From sequence record MK962752: a DNA stretch of 64,000 bases. The stretch is one strand, 5' to 3'. Both the position numbers and the translations under genes were made by a program. The notes below the pieces were generated by a model, which saw only the letters and a list, made by a program, of their open reading frames with translations, did not search any database and had not been told where the DNA came from. Origin of the DNA: Shigella phage JK23. The stretch's first letter is position 1. Each line of letters starts with the position of its first letter. This document shows, piece after piece, positions 50,442 through 61,677 of this stretch.

Positions 50442-52361
50442 ATGGCTACTTTAAAACAAATACAATTTAAAAGAAGCAAAACTGCAGGTCAACGTCCTGC
50501 TGCTTCAGTATTAGCCGAAGGTGAATTGGCTATAAACTTAAAAGATAAAACAATTTTCACAAAAGATGACTCAGGTAGTGTTATAGAATTAGGTTTAAAA
50601 TATGGAGGAACAATTGATGGTTCTTTAACTGTTAATGGAAATATAATTGGAAATTTAACAGGTAACGCTGCAACTGCAACGAAATTAAAAACAGCACGAA
50701 AAATTAATGGTATATCCTTTGATGGGTCAAAGGATATCACGCTAACTCCATCTGACATAAATGTCAATAGCACAACATTTATAAAAAATAATGGCGAATT
50801 ACCTGTTGATGCTAATTTAGATGAGTATGGGCCTGTTGAAGAATATCTTGGTGTTTGGTCGAAAGCAACTTCAACCAACGCTCAACCAGCAAATAAATTT
50901 CCAGAAGAAAATGCTGTAGGTGTGCTAGAAGTATTTGTGGCCGGTCAATTTGCTGGTACTCAGAGATATACAACTAGATACGGAAATGTTTATATTCGTT
51001 CCTTGACTGCTACATGGAACGGAGTAAATGGTCCGTGGAGTGTGTGGCGAAATATTCAATCCGGTACTCGTCCACTGTCAACAACAATTGATCTTAATGA
51101 TCTAGGAGGCGCTGAACACTTTGGTTTGTGGCGAAATAGTTCAAATTCCATTGCTACCTTTGACAGAAATTTCCCAGAAGAGGGGTCGTCAGCTCAAGGT
51201 CTTTTGGAAGTATATGAAGGTGGAAACTATTCTCGTACACAAAGATATACAACCAGATTTGGTGTTGTATATACTCGTTGTCTTGCTGCCGCGTGGGATG
51301 CTTCCGCGCCTAAATGGGGACCGTGGCAACAAGTCGGTAATGTCACACCAGCGACTTTCTATGACGGAGATCTGAATGATTTTAAAACCCCTGGGTTATA
51401 TAATATTTTAGGCACTGATGCCGTTATTAACTGTCCTACAGGTGAAGGTTTGCCGACTGTTATTGTTGGTTTGCTGGAAGTTAAACAACGTGCTTCTGGC
51501 GGTGCTATTTTCCAAAAATTTACTACTGCCGGAACGGGTGCAACTACTCGCGATCGTATTTTTGAGCGTGCATATACTGGTGGTGTGTGGGGTGCATGGA
51601 ACGAAGTATATACATCTTACTCTCTGCCAATTACTTTAGGTATGGGTGGTATTAAAACTCAATTAGCGGAGCTAGATTGGCAAACATTTGATTTTGTTCC
51701 TGGTAGTATGTTTAGCGTTCCTTTGAACAAAATAAAGAACATGCCAGCTAATATGAATTGGGGCACGATTGACGGAAACTTAATTATGTTTTCTGTTGGT
51801 CCTAGCGAGCACACCAGCACAGGACGTACTGTTCAGGTTTGGCGTGGAACTGTATCCCAGACAAACTATCGTTATTTTGTCGTTCGTGTGTTCGGTAATT
51901 CTGGAAATAGAACTTGCACAGTTCGCCGTGTTGTTCTTGAAGACGGATCACATACTTGGACTGCTCAACAAAACTTTAGGGGATTGCTGAATATCACTGC
52001 TGCTGTTAATCTTGGTGCTAATCAGAAAATTTCACTTGCTCCAGGAGCATATATTCAAGCCCCTGCTAGCGGTTCTGGTTCTAATACTTACGCAAATCAG
52101 AATACTACCATTGCGCCATTATATCAGGCTATTGACGATTCAAATAAAAACCAGTTTGCGCCAATTGTTAAACAGAAAAATACTGTAAGTAATATCACCT
52201 TTGCCACTGGTATGGCTATAGGTACATCCGAATATAAGATCATTGCTCAGGGTGATTTATCCGCTGATGGAACAGCAGATGGGTTAAAACAGTGGACTTT
52301 CATGCCGTCAGGTTATTTTAAATCTCCAGGGCGTGTATATGTCATTATATCAGGCTATTGA
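50442..52361 (+). CDS. 37: long tail fiber distal subunit gp37, 5' part; frame broken by a 226-bp tandem duplication
   Basis: N-terminus [13 protein letters not shown] as in T-even gp37; frame ends at TGA 52359-52361 inside the second repeat copy. Confidence 0.75.
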
Positions 52362-52569
52362 CGATTCAAATAAAAACCAGTTTGCGCCAATTGTTAAACA
52401 GAAAAATACTGTAAGTAATATCACCTTTGCCACTGGTATGGCTATAGGTACATCCGAATATAAGATCATTGCTCAGGGTGATTTATCCGCTGATGGAACA
52501 GCAGATGGGTTAAAACAGTGGACTTTCATGCCGTCAGGTTATTTTAAATCTCCAGGGCGTGTATATGTC
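52118..52569 (+). repeat. perfect direct tandem duplication, 2 x 226 bp, inside gene 37
   Basis: 52118-52343 is identical to 52344-52569; 226 is not divisible by 3. Confidence 0.9.
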
Positions 52570-53613
52570 GGTGATGCGTTCCTTAATACAGATGGTAATA
52601 TTGCCGGTTCAATCTGGAAGAAATATAACAATGCGACAAATTTAGATGCTGCCTTGAATACTCGCGTAGGTAAAGGCGGTGATACGATGACAGGTCGGTT
52701 AACAATCAATGCACCTAATGATTCTATTGTATTATCAACGACTGCTAGTAATTCTTTGCATATTCGTGGTGACATAGACGGGACTGGTAACTGGTATATT
52801 GGTAAGGGTGGTGCTGATAATTCGCTAGCATTTTATAGCTATGCTTCTCAGGCGGCAGTACATATCACAAACAATGGTGAGATTGCGTTAAACCCGCAAA
52901 ATACCGCAATGGTTAACGTTAACCGTGACCGTGTACACATTAACGGTTCTGGATGGATTGCTAGACAACCGGGTGATTGGGGCAACCAATGGCGAGTAGA
53001 AGCTCCATTATTCGTTGATCATGGTTATGTTTCACAGGATTGTTATTATCCTATTCTTAAAGCAAGAAGCGTTATAACCAATCAAGGATATAGCACCGCT
53101 GTTGACTTTGGTATGCGTCGTATTCCATCACAGTGGGGGCAAGCAATCATTCGTGTCGGATCCACGGAGGCTTCTCCTGATGCTGGACACCCACAAGCTA
53201 TATTTGAATTCCATCATGATGGATTCTTTTATACACCAGGAAATGGTAGCTTTAGCGATGTGTATATTCGTTCTGACTCCCGTCTCAAGATTAATAAAGA
53301 AGAATTAGAATATGGAGCGGTCGAAAAAGTTTGCCGACTGAAAGTTTATATTTACGATAAAGTTAAGTCTATTAAAGACCGTAGTGTTATTAAACGTGAA
53401 GTTGGTATTATTGCTCAGGACCTTGAAAAGGAATTACCGGAAGCTGTATCTAAAGTTGAAGTTGATGGATCTGATGTTCTGACAATTTCTAACTCTGCTG
53501 TGAATGCTCTTTTAATTAAGGCTATTCAGGAAATGAGTGAAGAAATTAAAGAATTGAAAACGCCTCTCTTTACTAAAATTGCTCGCAAAATTAGTAAATA
53601 TTTTAAATTCTAA
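52333..53613 (+). CDS. 37: long tail fiber distal subunit gp37, 3' part (in frame only downstream of the duplication)
   Basis: Track ORF (GTG start) resumes gp37 frame; C-terminal domain carries an SDxRxK motif like intramolecular-chaperone autoproteolysis sites. Confidence 0.65.
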
Positions 53614-56414: not shown

Positions 56415-56875
56415 TAGTAAAGGTCCTCAGAGTAAAGTTCTTTTTCACTACCACCACGTTCAATACGTACTTGTCCAGCGTAAGTTGCAATAATCATTGC
56501 TTCTTCACGTGTCCAATAATTACTATATTGGTCAATAAACCCTTGGTCATCATCACAAACTTGTTGAGTAACTAATTGAGGTTTAACTATATCTAAAACT
56601 TCGGCCATATCTTTAGAATAATGACGAGCACCTGGAATAATAAGAGTTCGTCCATCTTTTAATTTAAAACGGTTGGCTGCACAGACAATTCGTCGTTGAT
56701 ACTTTTGGTTTTTATCCCAGTACGCAGTCTGCCAACAGATTTCAGGAACTTCATCTAAAACATTTTGTTCTGTATATTCACCGCCGTAAGAAGCTAATTT
56801 AGCAGCCAGACTTTCCGGAGTCTCACGTAACAAAGCTTTATCTAACAGAGCTAAACGTTCTTTAAAAGTTTTCAT
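56414..56875 (-). CDS. hypothetical protein (arn.3 position)
   Basis: 153-aa ATG ORF. Confidence 0.65.
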
Positions 56876-57201
56876 TTAAACCATCCTTTAATACGTTGCC
56901 ACAAAGTTTTCTGTTGAGCTTTGTTAACACCAATTGAACGAATAACTGGTTGAGATTCCTGGAATTCTTTATAATCGGCAAGGTAAATTTCGTAAGCTGT
57001 ATCAGTAAATGAACTTATCGCTGCCATGAAATTATTGCGAATACCTACCGGAGCATCCTTATTTTCACGAATAATCATGTATTTACCAGTCTTAATCTTT
57101 ACAATAGTTCCAAGATAAGCTCCGTGGTACCAAATATCCCAACCCTCTTGAGTAGGTTCTGCACAACGACGAAGTTCATTAATAATTTCTAACTTGTTCA
57201 T
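56872..57201 (-). CDS. hypothetical protein (arn.4/motA.1 position)
   Basis: 109-aa ATG ORF. Confidence 0.6.
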
Positions 57202-57937: not shown

Positions 57938-57969
57938 TAAAATAAAAAAGGGAGAGCCTCGGCTCTCCC
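57938..57969 (-). terminator. rho-independent terminator upstream of motA promoter
   Basis: gggagagcc-tc-ggctctccc hairpin followed on minus strand by a T-run. Confidence 0.75.
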
Positions 57970-57974
57970 TAAAA

Positions 57975-58124
57975 TTACTGCATGACTGTGATAACTGTCA
58001 TGATAACACGTTGAATTCCGAACGCAAGAAGACCTCCTGCTACGGCTGGAACAACGCCTAAACCCGCCAGTAAAATGCTACCAGATACTAATGCAGCGCT
58101 TGTAATACCTATGAATGGACTCAT
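57975..58124 (-). CDS. small hydrophobic membrane peptide, 49 aa
   Basis: ATG overlapping gene 52 stop (ATGA); almost entirely hydrophobic; below track threshold. Confidence 0.5.
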   Translation of the reverse strand: MSPFIGITSAALVSGSILLAGLGVVPAVAGGLLAFGIQRVIMTVITVMQ

Positions 58125-59449
58125 TTGATTTCCTCTAAATCTTTGGTGTATTCTGTAACTACATCAGTAGTTTTCCAATATTCGTTTTCTTCTTTTTTAG
58201 CTTTAGCTTCTTCAGCAAGTTTCTTCGCTTCATCGGAAGTCATATGAAAAATATTCATTCCAACTAGTTTATCAACATAAGAAGAATACATATCGATTTT
58301 CGAAAGTTCTTCGGTCAGTTCTTTACGAGTTTTACCCTGTACAACAATTTCACCTGAAATTACTTTCTTAATGAAATGTGCCTTGGCAAAGGCTAAACGA
58401 AAAGCGGACTCAGTTTCTTTGATTTTGTTATCAATTCGTTTTTGGACATAAGTTTTACGAACTTCAACGAAGTCTTTGATTAAATCAACTACATTATCGT
58501 AAACTTGCAGCTTTCCTTTCTCATTAATGACGGTAATATTCTGAGAACGACGCTCAATCAACCCGAAGTCTTTCATAATTTTTGCATGGCGTTCTTCTTC
58601 ATTATCGCTCAAAGAGTATTCTTTTCGGAATTTAACTTTGAAGCCAAAGCCATGCTCACCACAAGCATCATCCCATGTAATGAAGCCTTTATCTTCAAGC
58701 GGGTCTAAGATTTTACTCACATAAGTTTCACGATCATACTTATATGGAATCTCAGTGATATGCATTTGAGTTCGTGAAGTAAACTTATATGTTCCACGAA
58801 TTTCATATTGCCCATCAATTTCAACGACTTCACCACGAAATTCTGGGAATTCTACCTTCGGTTTAGTTACTTTCTTTCCTTGAAGAGCTTGCAGTACAGC
58901 TTTCTTGACAGAAGAAACACTATGAGGAAGAATGTAAGTTGCATAACCAGTTGCAATACCGGAAACGCCATTAAGAAGAACAGTAGGAATAATAGGCAAA
59001 TAGAAAGCAGGCGGAATGTGTTCTTTATCTTGATGTACTGGAGCATATTCAGTATCTTTATATACGTTATAGAAATTTTTACTTACACGAGCAAAAATAT
59101 AACGACTTGCTGCTGCCTTTTGGACAGTACGAGAACCAAAGTTTCCTTGACCGTCTAACAGAGGAAAGTTATTATTCCAAGTGTTAGCCATCAAAGCACC
59201 TGCGTCTTGCGCAGAGTTTTCACCATGATGATATCCAAGGTCCGCTACACCACCTGCAATAGAAGCAAGTTTGTGAAACTTATCTTTATTTCCTCGCGCC
59301 AAATCAAGAGCTCGAGCAATAACAAATCGTTGAACTGGCTTAAATCCATCAATCATATTTGGGATAGCACGATTTTCAACCGTGTACATAGCATAAGCCA
59401 ATGCTTCATTATCAATGATACTTTTTAAATCGCGATTATTCAGTTGCAT
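58121..59449 (-). CDS. 52: DNA topoisomerase II medium subunit gp52
   Basis: 442 aa; GyrA-like breakage-reunion domain. Confidence 0.92.
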   Translation of the reverse strand: MQLNNRDLKSIIDNEALAYAMYTVENRAIPNMIDGFKPVQRFVIARALDLARGNKDKFHKLASIAGGVADLGYHHGENSAQDAGALMANTWNNNFPLLDGQGNFGSRTVQKAAASRYIFARVSKNFYNVYKDTEYAPVHQDKEHIPPAFYLPIIPTVLLNGVSGIATGYATYILPHSVSSVKKAVLQALQGKKVTKPKVEFPEFRGEVVEIDGQYEIRGTYKFTSRTQMHITEIPYKYDRETYVSKILDPLEDKGFITWDDACGEHGFGFKVKFRKEYSLSDNEEERHAKIMKDFGLIERRSQNITVINEKGKLQVYDNVVDLIKDFVEVRKTYVQKRIDNKIKETESAFRLAFAKAHFIKKVISGEIVVQGKTRKELTEELSKIDMYSSYVDKLVGMNIFHMTSDEAKKLAEEAKAKKEENEYWKTTDVVTEYTKDLEEIK

Positions 59450-59453
59450 AAAT

Positions 59454-59594
59454 TTACCATACTAGTGAATGTAGTGCCATAATAACATCAGAAATGAAAA
59501 GCACGACTTGAATTAATCCGAACATTACTCCGTAATATAGTGCTACCAATAAAGCAGCAAGGGCTAATGAATAGCCCAAGATTTTCTTAATCAT
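59454..59594 (-). CDS. small hydrophobic membrane peptide, 46 aa
   Basis: ATG ORF MIKKILGYSLALAALLVALYYG...; below track threshold. Confidence 0.5.
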   Translation of the reverse strand: MIKKILGYSLALAALLVALYYGVMFGLIQVVLFISDVIMALHSLVW

Positions 59595-59742
59595 TAGATA
59601 ACAACACAAATGTTAAATATGCACACATACCCTGGGCTAAAGCCTGTGAAAACACACTACTGACATCGATACAGATAGTTAAAATACATGCTACTATCCA
59701 ACAAATAAATGAAATAATTCCAATAATTTTTGCAGTATTCAT
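59587..59742 (-). CDS. small membrane protein, 51 aa (possible Ac homologue)
   Basis: ATG with GAGGAG Shine-Dalgarno; 51 codons, the size of T4 ac in the same neighbourhood; identity not verified. Confidence 0.5.
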   Translation of the reverse strand: MNTAKIIGIISFICWIVACILTICIDVSSVFSQALAQGMCAYLTFVLLSND

Positions 59743-59752
59743 AGTATTCTCC

Positions 59753-59839
59753 TCAACTATTTTTAAAACCTAAAATACCGAAGTTTTTAAGATTGTTACG
59801 ATAGAACTGCATCACATGTTCGTTATGGAAATTACTCAT
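59753..59839 (-). CDS. stp: Stp peptide (activator of host PrrC anticodon nuclease)
   Basis: 28-aa [21 protein letters not shown]...; N-terminal 18 residues match remembered T4 Stp. Confidence 0.7.
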
Positions 59840-60005
59840 ATATACCACACATTTTGCATAAACGTTCAAAACAGATATATCCACCACCAAAACACATCAC
59901 TATAGCAACTTTATCATTAAATGGAGCACCAAAGGCCATAAAGGCTCCAACCATTGTGAATAAAACTAAAACAAATATATAACCCGTTACGAGTAGACGT
60001 TTCAT
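59832..60005 (-). CDS. small hydrophobic membrane protein, 57 aa
   Basis: ATG overlapping ndd stop; stop overlaps stp start; hydrophobic with Cys cluster. Confidence 0.5.
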
Positions 60006-60460
60006 TAGTAAGCCTGCAGGATGAATTTAAAGTTATCAGCCAAGATACGGTTCATTTCTTCAAGTGTTTGATACTCAGAATGATGGTTACGAGTAAACGC
60101 CAAAGCTAACTGACCTTTTCCAAATCCTGTCGTCAGAGGTTTCATCTTAGAAGCAGGAAGATAAAATACTGTGTATGGAACATTGTTATTTGCAATAGTA
60201 CGTGCAAGCTGAGACCGACGTTGACGAATATGACTTAGAACTGCACTGAATCCTTGCTTAGAACGCTGATTACCTACATAAAATCGTGCAGATACGCATG
60301 GACTACTAAATGGACCACCGAGTTTACTCACTAAAAAGTAAAATCCAGGTTTAGACAAAATGTCTTTGTGCGGAGTTCCCAAAAACCACTCACCACCCTT
60401 GATTGTACCAATAACAGTAGCGCCTGCATTATTCAGATCAGTAACAGTCATATATTTCAT
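60005..60460 (-). CDS. ndd: Ndd nucleoid disruption protein
   Basis: Track start is upstream non-ATG; ATG at 60460 with GAGGA Shine-Dalgarno gives 151 aa starting [16 protein letters not shown]. Confidence 0.88.
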
Positions 60461-60736: not shown

Positions 60737-60851
60737 AATTCACCTCAAGGAGTATAAAATCCAAATGCAGTTGTTGACCATCCCATCCAATATGGGAAAT
60801 TTGCACCAATGTAAAACATAAGAATATAAAATCAACCGCTCAGCAAATTCA

Positions 60852-61049
60852 TCATTTTACACCATTCCAAATTATTTCAACCACGGATTTTAAACCGTTT
60901 TGATGAATATCCATTCCGACTACCGTCATCAAATAAATTCCAACTACAACTGAACCTAAGGCAAAAATCAGCATGAAAATGAATAAAGCCGGAAAAATAT
61001 TATCGAAAAACCATTCAATAAATGTAAAAGCACTGCGTTTACGCTTCAT
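60852..61049 (-). CDS. small membrane protein, 65 aa
   Basis: Track start is TTG; ATG at 61049 with GAGGAAAAT Shine-Dalgarno; hydrophobic core. Confidence 0.5.
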   Translation of the reverse strand: MKRKRSAFTFIEWFFDNIFPALFIFMLIFALGSVVVGIYLMTVVGMDIHQNGLKSVVEIIWNGVK

Positions 61050-61056
61050 ATTTTCC

Positions 61057-61170
61057 TCACATAAATCCAAAGTAAGCGTTTAATACATCAATCATTAAAA
61101 CGATTGGGAATATACTCAAAACTACTAGTATTATAACTACATTCCATATAGCTTTAACAATCTTTTTCAT
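61057..61170 (-). CDS. small membrane peptide, 37 aa
   Basis: ATG with GGAGG Shine-Dalgarno downstream of an early promoter; track ORF extends upstream through the promoter. Confidence 0.45.
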   Translation of the reverse strand: MKKIVKAIWNVVIILVVLSIFPIVLMIDVLNAYFGFM

Positions 61171-61235: not shown

Positions 61236-61334
61236 TTAAAAATATTCGTAATAAATGTGAATACCAACTACTACCGCTGAAACCTGTGCAACCCACCACG
61301 CACAAGCAATAAGTACAGAATTCAAAATTTTCAT
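61236..61334 (-). CDS. small hydrophobic peptide, 32 aa
   Basis: ATG with GAGG Shine-Dalgarno; hydrophobic with WW; below track threshold. Confidence 0.4.
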   Translation of the reverse strand: MKILNSVLIACAWWVAQVSAVVVGIHIYYEYF

Positions 61335-61413
61335 AATAACCTCATTACAAAAGTAAATGTTAAACAAATTACTGGAATACTAATTAACCAAACAAAACAC
61401 CACCATAATGAAC

Positions 61414-61677
61414 TCATAGTTCAATCTCAGCGATTTTCATTTCATTACTATTAATAGCCGCTTTAAGACTATCTGAAAGAATTACATTCCAATGGTCATT
61501 CATATGACCATTAACTAAACGTGTAATTTCTTCAGGAGTTGAAAAATAAGGCTGATCGGACTCCCAATGCGATAATCCTAAGCGAGTATAAATCATGCCT
61601 TCATCATCGCTAGAATATTCAACTGACACAAACTCATCAGTTATTTTATGCTTAGCATAATAAAATTTAAATTTCAT
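61414..61677 (-). CDS. hypothetical protein
   Basis: Track start is TTG; first ATG at 61677 gives 87 aa. Confidence 0.55.
   Translation of the reverse strand: MKFKFYYAKHKITDEFVSVEYSSDDEGMIYTRLGLSHWESDQPYFSTPEEITRLVNGHMNDHWNVILSDSLKAAINSNEMKIAEIEL

Follow-up and report, generated by a model that had tools for sequence, protein, structure and literature searches.

The interval between ndd and gene 52 in Shigella phage JK23 (record MK962752; the whole stretch of 64,000 nucleotides that was analysed is called the window here) is, with high probability, part of a T-even (Tequatrovirus) early transcription unit. This is the joint best explanation for the identities of its four small genes, the coupling of their translation, and the history of one of them, ORF57. 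On the minus strand, the genes are arranged in the order ndd, ORF57, stp, ac, 52.1, 52, and motA.1, and the unit is closed 3' of motA.1 by a terminator-like hairpin (57949..57970, minus strand; 9 bp stem, 6 GC pairs, T-run). The gap between ndd (60005..60460, minus strand), which encodes the nucleoid disruption protein of 151 aa and has annotated counterparts in T4-like phages, and gene 52 (58121..59449, minus strand), which encodes the topoisomerase II medium subunit of 442 aa, is entirely filled by four minus-strand ORFs. These include ORF57 (59832..60005, 57 aa, phrog_5941), stp (59753..59839, 28 aa), ac (59587..59742, 51 aa), and 52.1 (59454..59594, 46 aa, ATG start, DUF7396). All four genes have previously been deposited and annotated in T4-like phages. 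The assignments draw on family HMMs, the annotated regions of T6, T2, 101117BS1, and T4, and ORF tables of 13 phages. Database entries for Shigella phage JK23 contain the exact sequences of Ac (QEG05299.1, named 'acridine resistance protein'), ORF57 (QEG05300.1, named 'hypothetical protein JK23_00261'), and Ndd.2a (QEG05303.1), so that the window does not differ from JK23 in these three proteins, and the exact sequences of five other tested peptides are likewise on record. The cluster corresponds to the ndd-52 segment known from textbook T-even phages, with every ORF already in GenBank, and nothing in it points to a new kind of system. The residual interest is modest and lies with ORF57, a conserved predicted hairpin that is probably coupled to ndd and is found across several T4-like genera, and with gp52.1.

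The corresponding T4 segment, ndd-stp-ac-52.1-52-motA.1 (NC_000866, 163730-166040), has the same gene order (apart from ORF57), strand, and coupling as the window. In T4, the TAATG at the end of ndd leads directly into stp without ORF57, which accounts for a difference of 166 bp from the window. In the window, one base is common to ndd and ORF57 at this junction (TAATG), the stp ATG is placed 8 nt within the 3' end of ORF57, the stp TGA forms part of the Shine-Dalgarno sequence of ac, the 52.1 ATG is placed 8 nt within the 3' end of ac, and the 52.1 stop lies 4 nt ahead of the gene 52 ATG. The four ORFs of 46, 51, 28, and 57 codons that were originally predicted to overlap one another all exist, but overlaps (8 nt each, at ORF57/stp and at ac/52.1) are found at only two of the three internal junctions, and stp and ac are spaced by 10 nt. 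The original prediction also gave each ORF a plausible ribosome-binding site. This holds for ac, the only one of the four with a canonical, strong Shine-Dalgarno sequence (GAGGAG), but not for ORF57, stp, and 52.1, which have no strong ribosome-binding site and begin with an ATG that overlaps the preceding gene at its stop or 3' end. Since the starts of these three genes lie within the preceding ORF or right at its end, their translation is probably coupled to that of the preceding gene. The promoter was not located because a scan for sigma-70-type promoters was at background (24 sites vs 22.1 expected) and no MotA box was found near the cluster on the coding strand, the sole nearby match being on the wrong strand.

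Three of the four ORFs are hydrophobic, as predicted (GRAVY 1.73, 1.44, and 1.12; the 28-codon ORF scores -0.68). Hydrophobicity was rejected as evidence of coding, as it is uninformative in an AT-rich genome: among ATG-initiated ORFs of 25-70 aa in the six frames of the window, 32 of 256 have a GRAVY of at least 1.1. The ORFs are raised above chance because they are conserved. Each matches a family HMM (E values of 1e-25 for 52.1, 8.5e-24 for ac, 6.7e-18 for stp, and 2.9e-20 for ORF57), tblastn matched 729 phage records for 52.1, 458 for ac, and 210 for ORF57, and dN/dS is below 1 in the 52.1 and ORF57 comparisons. It had been suggested that a lack of conservation of these reading frames in related phages would speak against the genes; the frames are conserved there. 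The products of 52.1 and ORF57 are predicted small inner-membrane peptides, and we infer their translation from conservation only. None of the four ORFs matched a PADLOC defence profile, and the genes are absent from the main text of an omics paper on T4 (PMC9697503).

The 52.1 product is identical to T4 gp52.1 at 46 of 46 residues, and entries with this very sequence exist for T4 and others. It is hydrophobic, matches Pfam PF24129 (DUF7396) with 81.1 bits against a cut-off of 27 and phrog_3595 at E 1e-25, and contains a conserved C-terminal LFISDVI stretch. Judged from sequence comparison with Dhakavirus (dN/dS 0.05-0.07), gp52.1 is under strong purifying selection.

The 28-codon ORF had been counted among the tiny membrane peptides. 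That description fits the other three, which are predicted membrane peptides, but the 28-codon ORF is by its sequence Stp, a soluble peptide. All 28 aa are identical to T6 Stp, and T4 Stp shares the first 18 residues; the C-terminus is of the T6/T2 type (28 aa), unlike that of T4. The match to PF08133 (Nuclease_act) is 53.6 bits against a cut-off of 25 (E 1.5e-14), and phrog_6763 is matched at E 6.7e-18. Stp is soluble and cytoplasmic, and by inhibiting the type Ic restriction enzyme EcoprrI it unmasks the PrrC anticodon nuclease; loss-of-function mutations of Stp map to the N-terminal 18 residues, and delayed-early expression has been reported (PMC3014915).

The 51-codon ORF had been proposed, on size and location, to be ac, and this was borne out: the sequence identifies it as encoding the predicted T4-type Ac 'acridine resistance' membrane peptide. 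It is identical to T4 Ac at 45 of 51 residues (88%) and sits in the same slot, between stp and 52.1 and upstream of gene 52. The six differences (I3T, L6I, L7I, V9I, V20I, and A27V) are all conservative and confined to positions 3-27, and G38 is kept. Residues 2-48 match phrog_2501 at E 8.5e-24, and none of the 458 matching records exceeds 90% aa identity in the phage DNA collection searched, of which the JK23 record is not a part. Ac is described as a two-helix inner-membrane peptide that makes infected cells accumulate acridines (bioRxiv 10.1101/2025.06.30.662393; PMC13250531). The classical interpretation is a change in permeability, as discussed in a recent preprint (bioRxiv 10.1101/2025.06.30.662393) in which the substitution G38R in Ac gives acriflavine resistance and abolishes the Ac effect. 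That Ac blocks efflux through AcrAB-TolC is put forward there as a proposal and not as a demonstration (bioRxiv 10.1101/2025.06.30.662393; also PMC13250531). The original suggestion that such peptides act on transporters, superinfection, or abortive infection is generic, and it fits both this proposal and the known role of Stp.

AcrZ binds AcrAB-TolC, the same pump on which Ac is proposed to act (bioRxiv 10.1101/2025.06.30.662393). In size and hydrophobicity, the peptides described here are similar to AcrZ and other small proteins that regulate transporters in the inner membrane of E. coli. A relationship between Ac and AcrZ was considered and rejected, as BLASTP of Ac against AcrZ returned no alignment at E <= 100. 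AcrZ is a single helix; Ac and ORF57, by contrast, are predicted to be hairpins. Links between small phage membrane peptides and efflux pumps are now emerging, as in the case of Ac, and ORF57 and 52.1 are reasonable candidates for targeted tests.

ORF57 is the only one of the four genes that is not present in T4, T2, and T6, and it is also missing from RB69. It is inferred to be dispensable because these phages lack it. The sequence matches phrog_5941 over residues 1-57 of 57 (E 2.9e-20), and the family occurs in Dhakavirus (JS98, ESCO10, and IME341), Jiaodavirus (Mineola), Winklervirus (Serratia LC53/X20 and Erwinia Gravdalen), and ime09-like Tequatrovirus; within Tequatrovirus it is found in a minority. 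In most of the matches listed among the 210 phage records, ORF57 is annotated beside ndd. The family forms 20 clusters at 90% identity and 15 representatives at 50%, and its full-length members are 57-61 aa long. A profile scan of 1.84 billion proteins recovered this same 57-61-aa family only, save for a spurious repeat protein and a truncated copy; over the profile searches as a whole, three matches were truncated or spurious. The reading frame and the length of 57 aa are maintained, with no indels, at identities as low as 33% in at least four genera. In an alignment of 20 sequences, G26, F46-E47-R48, and G54 are invariant and all are present in the window copy, and dN/dS in pairs with unsaturated dS is 0.16-0.67, below 1 in every informative pair. 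Searches for remote homologues gave no match in Pfam, NCBIfam, or PADLOC, only noise at E 0.87 among PDB sequences, and generic helical hairpins with a best E of 4.5 in a Foldseek search of the PDB.

The AlphaFold2 model of ORF57 is a two-helix hairpin with helices at 2-24 and 31-53 (pLDDT 79.4, moderate confidence), and the hydropathy profile contains hydrophobic stretches at 1-29 and 32-47. The most likely arrangement of ORF57 on this model is an N-in/C-in helical hairpin in which helix 2-24 is joined to helix 31-53 by a periplasmic G-x-P loop (25-30). F46-E47-R48 and G54 would then lie at the cytoplasmic membrane interface, and it may be guessed by analogy that ORF57 binds a host inner-membrane protein early in infection. 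A role of C38, C45, C50, and C53 in zinc binding or disulphide formation was considered and rejected: close relatives already differ at C38, C45, and C50, and several members have another residue in place of C53, the best-kept of the cysteines.

ORF57 directly follows ndd in every context that was read, with a TAATG overlap in most; in JS98 and two Dhakavirus-like metagenome contigs, the ATG lies one base after the ndd stop. The string ndd, ORF57, 52.1, 52 was found in five of the five outgroup contexts read, including that of the most distant family member (E 7e-4), which sits between Phage_T4_Ndd and DUF7396 plus topoisomerase. In the proposed history, the stp and ac-type peptides are lineage-specific additions between ORF57 and 52.1. 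In T4-type phages, the absence of ORF57 is a precise one of 166 bp between two ATGA motifs, with the ndd stop fused to the stp ATG. Judged from the sequence, the window copy of ORF57 is a Dhakavirus-like patch within a T6-like ndd/stp backbone that was acquired by recombination. Sliding identity along a MAFFT alignment of 9 phages places this patch at 59840..60050 (minus strand), where it comprises the last ~45 nt of ndd and ORF57. In 40-column windows of the alignment, the patch is 88-100% identical to Dhakavirus ESCO10 vs 65-95% to the ime09-type allele, and the sequence on either side resembles T6, with identities of 100% in the part of ndd upstream of about 60076 and of 97-100% in stp. Over ORF57, the DNA identity is 93.1% to ESCO10 and at most 84.7% to all other records, the ime09-type allele of other Tequatrovirus records being 81.0% identical; at the protein level, the identity is 91% to ESCO10 (Dhakavirus) and 68% to the usual Tequatrovirus allele.

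Several other readings of ORF57 were weighed. It could be an accidental open frame in an inserted AT-rich spacer between ndd and stp and no gene at all, a reading in keeping with the frequency of chance hydrophobic small ORFs in the window (32/256), the lack of a strong Shine-Dalgarno sequence, the JS98 RefSeq record, which leaves ORF57 unannotated, and its absence from T4, T2, T6, and RB69. An accidental frame is nevertheless highly improbable and close to refuted, given that length and frame persist without indels to 33% identity in at least four genera, that dN/dS is below 1 in all informative pairs, that the FER and Gly positions are invariant, that the TAATG overlap with ndd recurs in most contexts, and that ORF57 has a PHROG family of its own. 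It is extremely improbable that a +1 ribosomal frameshift in their overlap joins ORF57 and stp into a single membrane-tethered fusion protein. Within ORF57, the stp frame has no stop in the 17 codons that precede its ATG (a 45-aa TTG-initiated ORF, 59753-59890), the open stretch is longer still in ESCO10 (a 52-aa ORF), and the overlap is 8 nt wherever both genes occur. However, neither a slippery sequence nor a stimulatory structure was identified, ATGA-type overlaps are the usual T4 coupling and ac/52.1 are arranged alike, Stp is active as a free 26-aa peptide (PMC3014915) and stands alone in T4, T2, and T6, and Klebsiella, Serratia, and Erwinia phages have ORF57 without stp.

ORF57 might instead be a co-translated, stoichiometric inner-membrane partner of Ndd, for example an anchor that helps Ndd to move the host nucleoid to the cell periphery, of which T4-type phages would have become independent. 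This is an unlikely reading, although several features agree with it: the invariable position right after ndd with a mostly TAATG stop/start, the lack of a ribosome-binding site of its own, an exchanged patch that spans both the ndd 3' end and ORF57, and GenBank notes for T4 and T6 in which Ndd binds host DNA to the membrane. Against it, ndd occurs without ORF57 in T4, T2, T6, and RB69, and T4 Ndd is functional; T4-like synteny is strong for many unrelated genes and stp occupies the same coupled position in T4; and the patch boundary in ndd may just mark the homology that permitted crossover. We also give little credence to a non-specific perturbation of the membrane (proton-motive force or permeability) by ORF57 and 52.1, with Ac as a side effect, in the manner of type I toxins or pinholin-like peptides. 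The size and hydrophobicity are those of small membrane toxins, the classical reading of Ac is a permeability change (bioRxiv 10.1101/2025.06.30.662393), and no homology to characterised families was found in Pfam, NCBIfam, PADLOC, the PDB, or Foldseek. Position-specific conservation (FER/Gly in ORF57; LFISDVI and dN/dS 0.05-0.07 in 52.1), however, argues for specific contacts, and the single substitution G38R abolishes the Ac effect (bioRxiv 10.1101/2025.06.30.662393). A more specific role for ORF57 is likewise only a tentative and rather improbable suggestion, in which it would be either a membrane partner of Ndd, co-translated with it and ancestral in T4-like enterobacterial phages, or a protein that specifically modulates an inner-membrane transporter or a defence sensor of the host via the invariant interfacial F-E-R motif as contact site. 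If it were the former, it would have been overlooked since none of the model phages (T4, T2, T6, and RB69) happens to carry it; if the latter, the repeated exchange between Dhakavirus and Tequatrovirus would reflect selection by a host factor.

Further small peptides of 49, 65, 37, and 32 aa had been listed as similar to those between ndd and gene 52. All four are present on the minus strand, but the similarity did not hold up, as they are named T4 ORFs without detectable homology to one another or to the four ORFs between ndd and gene 52. The possibility that the small hydrophobic peptides are paralogues was rejected because hhalign probabilities among six family alignments (ORF57, Ac, the 'GVWVP' peptide of the ac slot, 52.1, Ndd.4, and Ndd.2a) were at most 2.2%, which indicates independent families. 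The 65-aa ndd.2a (60852..61049; DUF7248, PF23906 67.6 bits) is intact in the window, whereas T4 has the corresponding sequence divided between ndd.2a and ndd.3, and ndd.2 has a nonsense codon in the window, unlike in T4. The genes motA.1, ndd.4, ndd.5, and ndd.6 are common to T4 and the window. The 37-aa ndd.4 product (61057..61170) is hydrophobic and matches phrog_3098 at E 3.1e-21; it alone gave a weak match to the KwaA profile of PADLOC (E 0.0085, 13.8 bits), which most likely reflects transmembrane composition. The 32-aa ndd.5 product (61236..61334) matches phrog_5011 at E 3.6e-26. A hydrophobic 28-aa peptide encoded by ndd.6 (61331..61417, minus strand; phrog_8851 E 1.6e-17) was missing from the original list. 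The product of motA.1 (57975..58124) is a Gly/Ala-rich, hydrophobic peptide of 49 aa that matches phrog_3487 at E 2.2e-31; its start overlaps the gene 52 stop, and the exact sequence is found on 582 contigs.

The window is a T4-like (Tequatrovirus) genome segment in which the minus strand carries every gene of this part. An ORF listing and direct reading determined that the gap between gene 52 (58121-59449, minus strand, 442 aa) and ndd (60005-60460, minus strand, 151 aa) is filled exactly by four ATG-initiated ORFs, lying where the original prediction had placed them. These are, all on the minus strand, 52.1 (59454-59594, 46 aa; phrog_3595, E 1e-25; Pfam DUF7396, 81.1 bits, cut-off 27), ac (59587-59742, 51 aa; phrog_2501, E 8.5e-24), stp (59753-59839, 28 aa; phrog_6763; Pfam Nuclease_act, 53.6 bits, cut-off 25), and a 57-aa frame, ORF57 (59832-60005; phrog_5941, E 2.9e-20), that is unnamed in the references and for which a Pfam search returned no family. 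All 46 residues of gp52.1 are the same as in T4, Ac is identical to T4 Ac at 45/51 positions (I3T, L6I, L7I, V9I, V20I, and A27V, with G38 retained), and Stp is identical to T6 Stp and has its first 18 residues in common with T4 Stp. The suggestion that the 51-codon ORF is ac is thus borne out by its identity to T4, whereas Stp and 52.1 had gone unrecognized; the functions offered were generic. The annotated order in T4, T2, and T6 is motA, motA.1, 52, 52.1, ac, stp, ndd, ndd.1 to ndd.6, denB. Exact-sequence look-ups found 8/8 small proteins tested in public records, and ORF57 (QEG05300.1), Ac (QEG05299.1), and Ndd.2a (QEG05303.1) are deposited exactly for Shigella phage JK23, so the window is this phage or one nearly identical to it. 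Every gene of the cluster already has an annotation in public records.

Hydrophobicity by itself is unconvincing as a sign of a real gene in this AT-rich window, where, over six frames, 32 of the 256 small ORFs with an ATG start have a GRAVY of at least 1.1 and many of these sit in alternative frames of large genes. Sequence conservation, by comparison, convincingly lifts 52.1, ac, and ORF57 above chance. Matches were found in 729 (52.1), 458 (ac), and 210 (ORF57, by tblastn) phage records. Against Dhakavirus, 52.1 has a dN/dS of 0.05-0.07; ac compared with T4 has 0.44, and ORF57 values run from 0.16 to 0.67. The reading frames, whose loss in relatives had been named as evidence against the genes, are conserved across phage records.

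The genes are tightly packed. One base is shared at the ndd/ORF57 junction (TAATG), the ATGs of stp and 52.1 each fall 8 nt within the upstream gene (ORF57 and ac, respectively), a 10-nt gap separates stp from ac with the stp TGA contained in the ac Shine-Dalgarno GAGGAG, and 4 nt separate 52.1 from gene 52. Of the cluster's small genes, ac alone carries a strong ribosome-binding site; the rest appear to be translated by coupling, as we infer from the sequence. A promoter scan gave background-level results, and no MotA box was found on the coding strand near the cluster. A strong terminator-like hairpin lies 3' of motA.1 (57970-57949, minus strand).

Stp inhibits EcoprrI and in this way activates PrrC, an anticodon nuclease; this activity has been mapped to the first 18 residues, and Stp is listed among the delayed-early products (PMC3014915). 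Those 18 residues are unchanged from T4 in the window. Mutants of ac are resistant to acriflavine and expression of Ac sensitises E. coli; a 2025 preprint proposed that Ac blocks AcrAB-TolC (bioRxiv 10.1101/2025.06.30.662393; cited in PMC13250531). The G38R change in Ac was reported to confer resistance (bioRxiv 10.1101/2025.06.30.662393). Action of Ac through an AcrAB-TolC block is a proposal, and no sequence similarity was found between Ac and AcrZ, a small inner-membrane protein that binds this pump.

The ac slot is occupied by T4-type Ac, a divergent Ac-like peptide ('GETSV'), or an unrelated peptide ('GVWVP') whose hhalign probability against Ac is 0.7%. The hydrophobic 'GVWVP' peptide (46-54 aa) fills the slot in Dhakavirus (JS98), Klebsiella, Serratia, and Erwinia (Gravdalen) phages. 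In some phages two ac-like genes stand in tandem (e.g., phage 101117BS1, 2457-2612 and 2288-2446 of the region read). In T2 record LC348380 ac has shrunk to a 13-codon remnant. In T6 record MH550421 the ac C-terminus is frameshifted (49 aa, ending ...AQGMWCIFNICVVI) and a full-length gene 52 ORF is lacking (383 aa vs 442, unannotated).

Of the four genes, ORF57 alone is missing from T4. In T4, T2, and T6 the ndd stop (TAATG) passes straight into stp, and RB69 has ndd, ac, 52.1, and 52 without ORF57 or stp. A DNA search found ORF57 in only 36 of 50,697 records. The 210 records found by tblastn are mostly Klebsiella T4-like phages, with ndd adjoining the match where the rows carry annotation. 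Loci were read closely in Dhakavirus, ime09-type Tequatrovirus, Jiaodavirus, an unclassified Klebsiella phage, and Serratia and Erwinia Winklervirus. Profile searching of 5.8 billion proteins recovered 20 ORF57 clusters, and HMMER run in full over 1.84 billion representatives recovered 15 family members; every full-length member is 57-61 aa long. Residues G26, F46, E47, R48, and G54 are invariant in a 20-sequence alignment; position 47 is D in one more distant representative, position 46 is I in a few, and the cysteines of the window protein are not conserved. The most distant member (E 7e-4) is flanked by a Phage_T4_Ndd gene and by DUF7396 plus topoisomerase, and the string ndd, ORF57, 52.1, 52 occurs in 5/5 outgroup contexts read. 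On an evolutionary reading, stp and the ac-slot peptides are lineage-specific insertions. Annotation of the small genes is erratic: ORF57 is left unannotated in JS98 RefSeq NC_010105 (701-874 of the region read), ESCO10 product names misfit the genes here ('sliding clamp' for ORF57, 'recombination endonuclease subunit' for 52.1), and tiny ORFs in several records are labelled 'naphthalene 1,2-dioxygenase', 'sugar ABC transporter permease', or 'flagellar motor protein MotA'.

At the DNA level the window ORF57 is closest to Dhakavirus ESCO10 (93.1% identity); no other record exceeds 84.7%, and the allele of other Tequatrovirus records stands at 81.0%. Sliding identity (40-column windows, nine phages) determined that ndd matches T6 at 100% as far down as about 60076, that the final ~45 nt of ndd together with ORF57 (roughly 60050-59840) match ESCO10 (88-100%), and that stp is T6-like again (97-100% in windows wholly inside stp), while ac is a separate allele (about 90% to all others) and 52.1 is T4-identical. 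The ORF57 of ime09-type Tequatrovirus is 95% identical to that of IME341, which is taken to be a Dhakavirus-like phage because its ndd, ac-slot peptide, and gene 52 match JS98. With one allele ESCO10-like and the other IME341-like, ORF57 has apparently passed between Dhakavirus and Tequatrovirus two or more times, by recombination at the conserved 3' end of ndd and 5' end of stp. The ORF57-stp ATG-to-ATG distance is 166 nt, and the T4-type state is a precise 166-bp absence with an ATGA motif at the flanks.

ORF57 is a predicted helical hairpin: AlphaFold2 with the family alignment placed helices at 2-24 and 31-53 around an F-G-A-P-F-N loop (mean pLDDT 79.4). An N-in/C-in topology is likely, as the N-terminus carries K2/R3 and E47/R48/K51 lie close to the C-terminus. 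Neither by fold nor by sequence did ORF57 have a meaningful match among solved structures, and the literature yielded no experimental work on gp52.1 or ORF57. Our best guess, by analogy, is that both may be peptides of the inner membrane that act early and bind particular host membrane proteins; their position-specific conservation argues against an effect on the membrane that is purely non-specific. Only the invariant adjacency and the coupling suggest that ORF57 is functionally linked to Ndd, and T4 Ndd working without ORF57 weakens this link.

The further peptides of 49, 65, 37, and 32 aa that had been predicted are present on the minus strand as MotA.1 (57975-58124), Ndd.2a (60852-61049, DUF7248), Ndd.4 (61057-61170), and Ndd.5 (61236-61334), with Ndd.6 (28 aa) at 61331-61417, also minus strand. 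Ndd.2a is an intact ORF in the window, T6, and ime09; its counterpart is frameshift-split in T4 (ndd.3, 26 aa, and ndd.2a, 40 aa) and is split in T2 as well. In PADLOC, Ndd.4 weakly matches the Kiwa defence protein KwaA (E 0.0085, 13.8 bits), most likely through transmembrane-helix composition. The small 'outer membrane protein' ORF ndd.2 (60745-60855, minus strand) is truncated or a pseudogene here, unless it restarts at Met13, because codon 8 has changed from TGG to TGA (stop at 60834-60832); the compared 121 nt are otherwise identical to T6.

On the plus strand, long-tail-fibre gene 37 contains a perfect 226-nt tandem duplication (52117-52342 and 52343-52568, 100%). Since 226 is not a multiple of 3, the gene is split into ORFs of 639 aa (50442-52361) and 426 aa (52333-53613), and removing one copy in silico gives a single 981-aa ORF. 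The duplication is an artefact of assembly or else a genuine one that shifts the frame of an essential gene. Directly downstream of motA lies the long form of arn.4 (56872-57201, minus strand, 109 aa), which is annotated as 68 aa in T4 RefSeq vs 109 aa in RB69; the 109-aa form has a match in 1001 phage records. By its size and MotA-adjacent place alone it is like Emp/Gp94 of Mosigvirus AV110, which is reported to target MreBCD (bioRxiv 10.64898/2026.09.14.751387).
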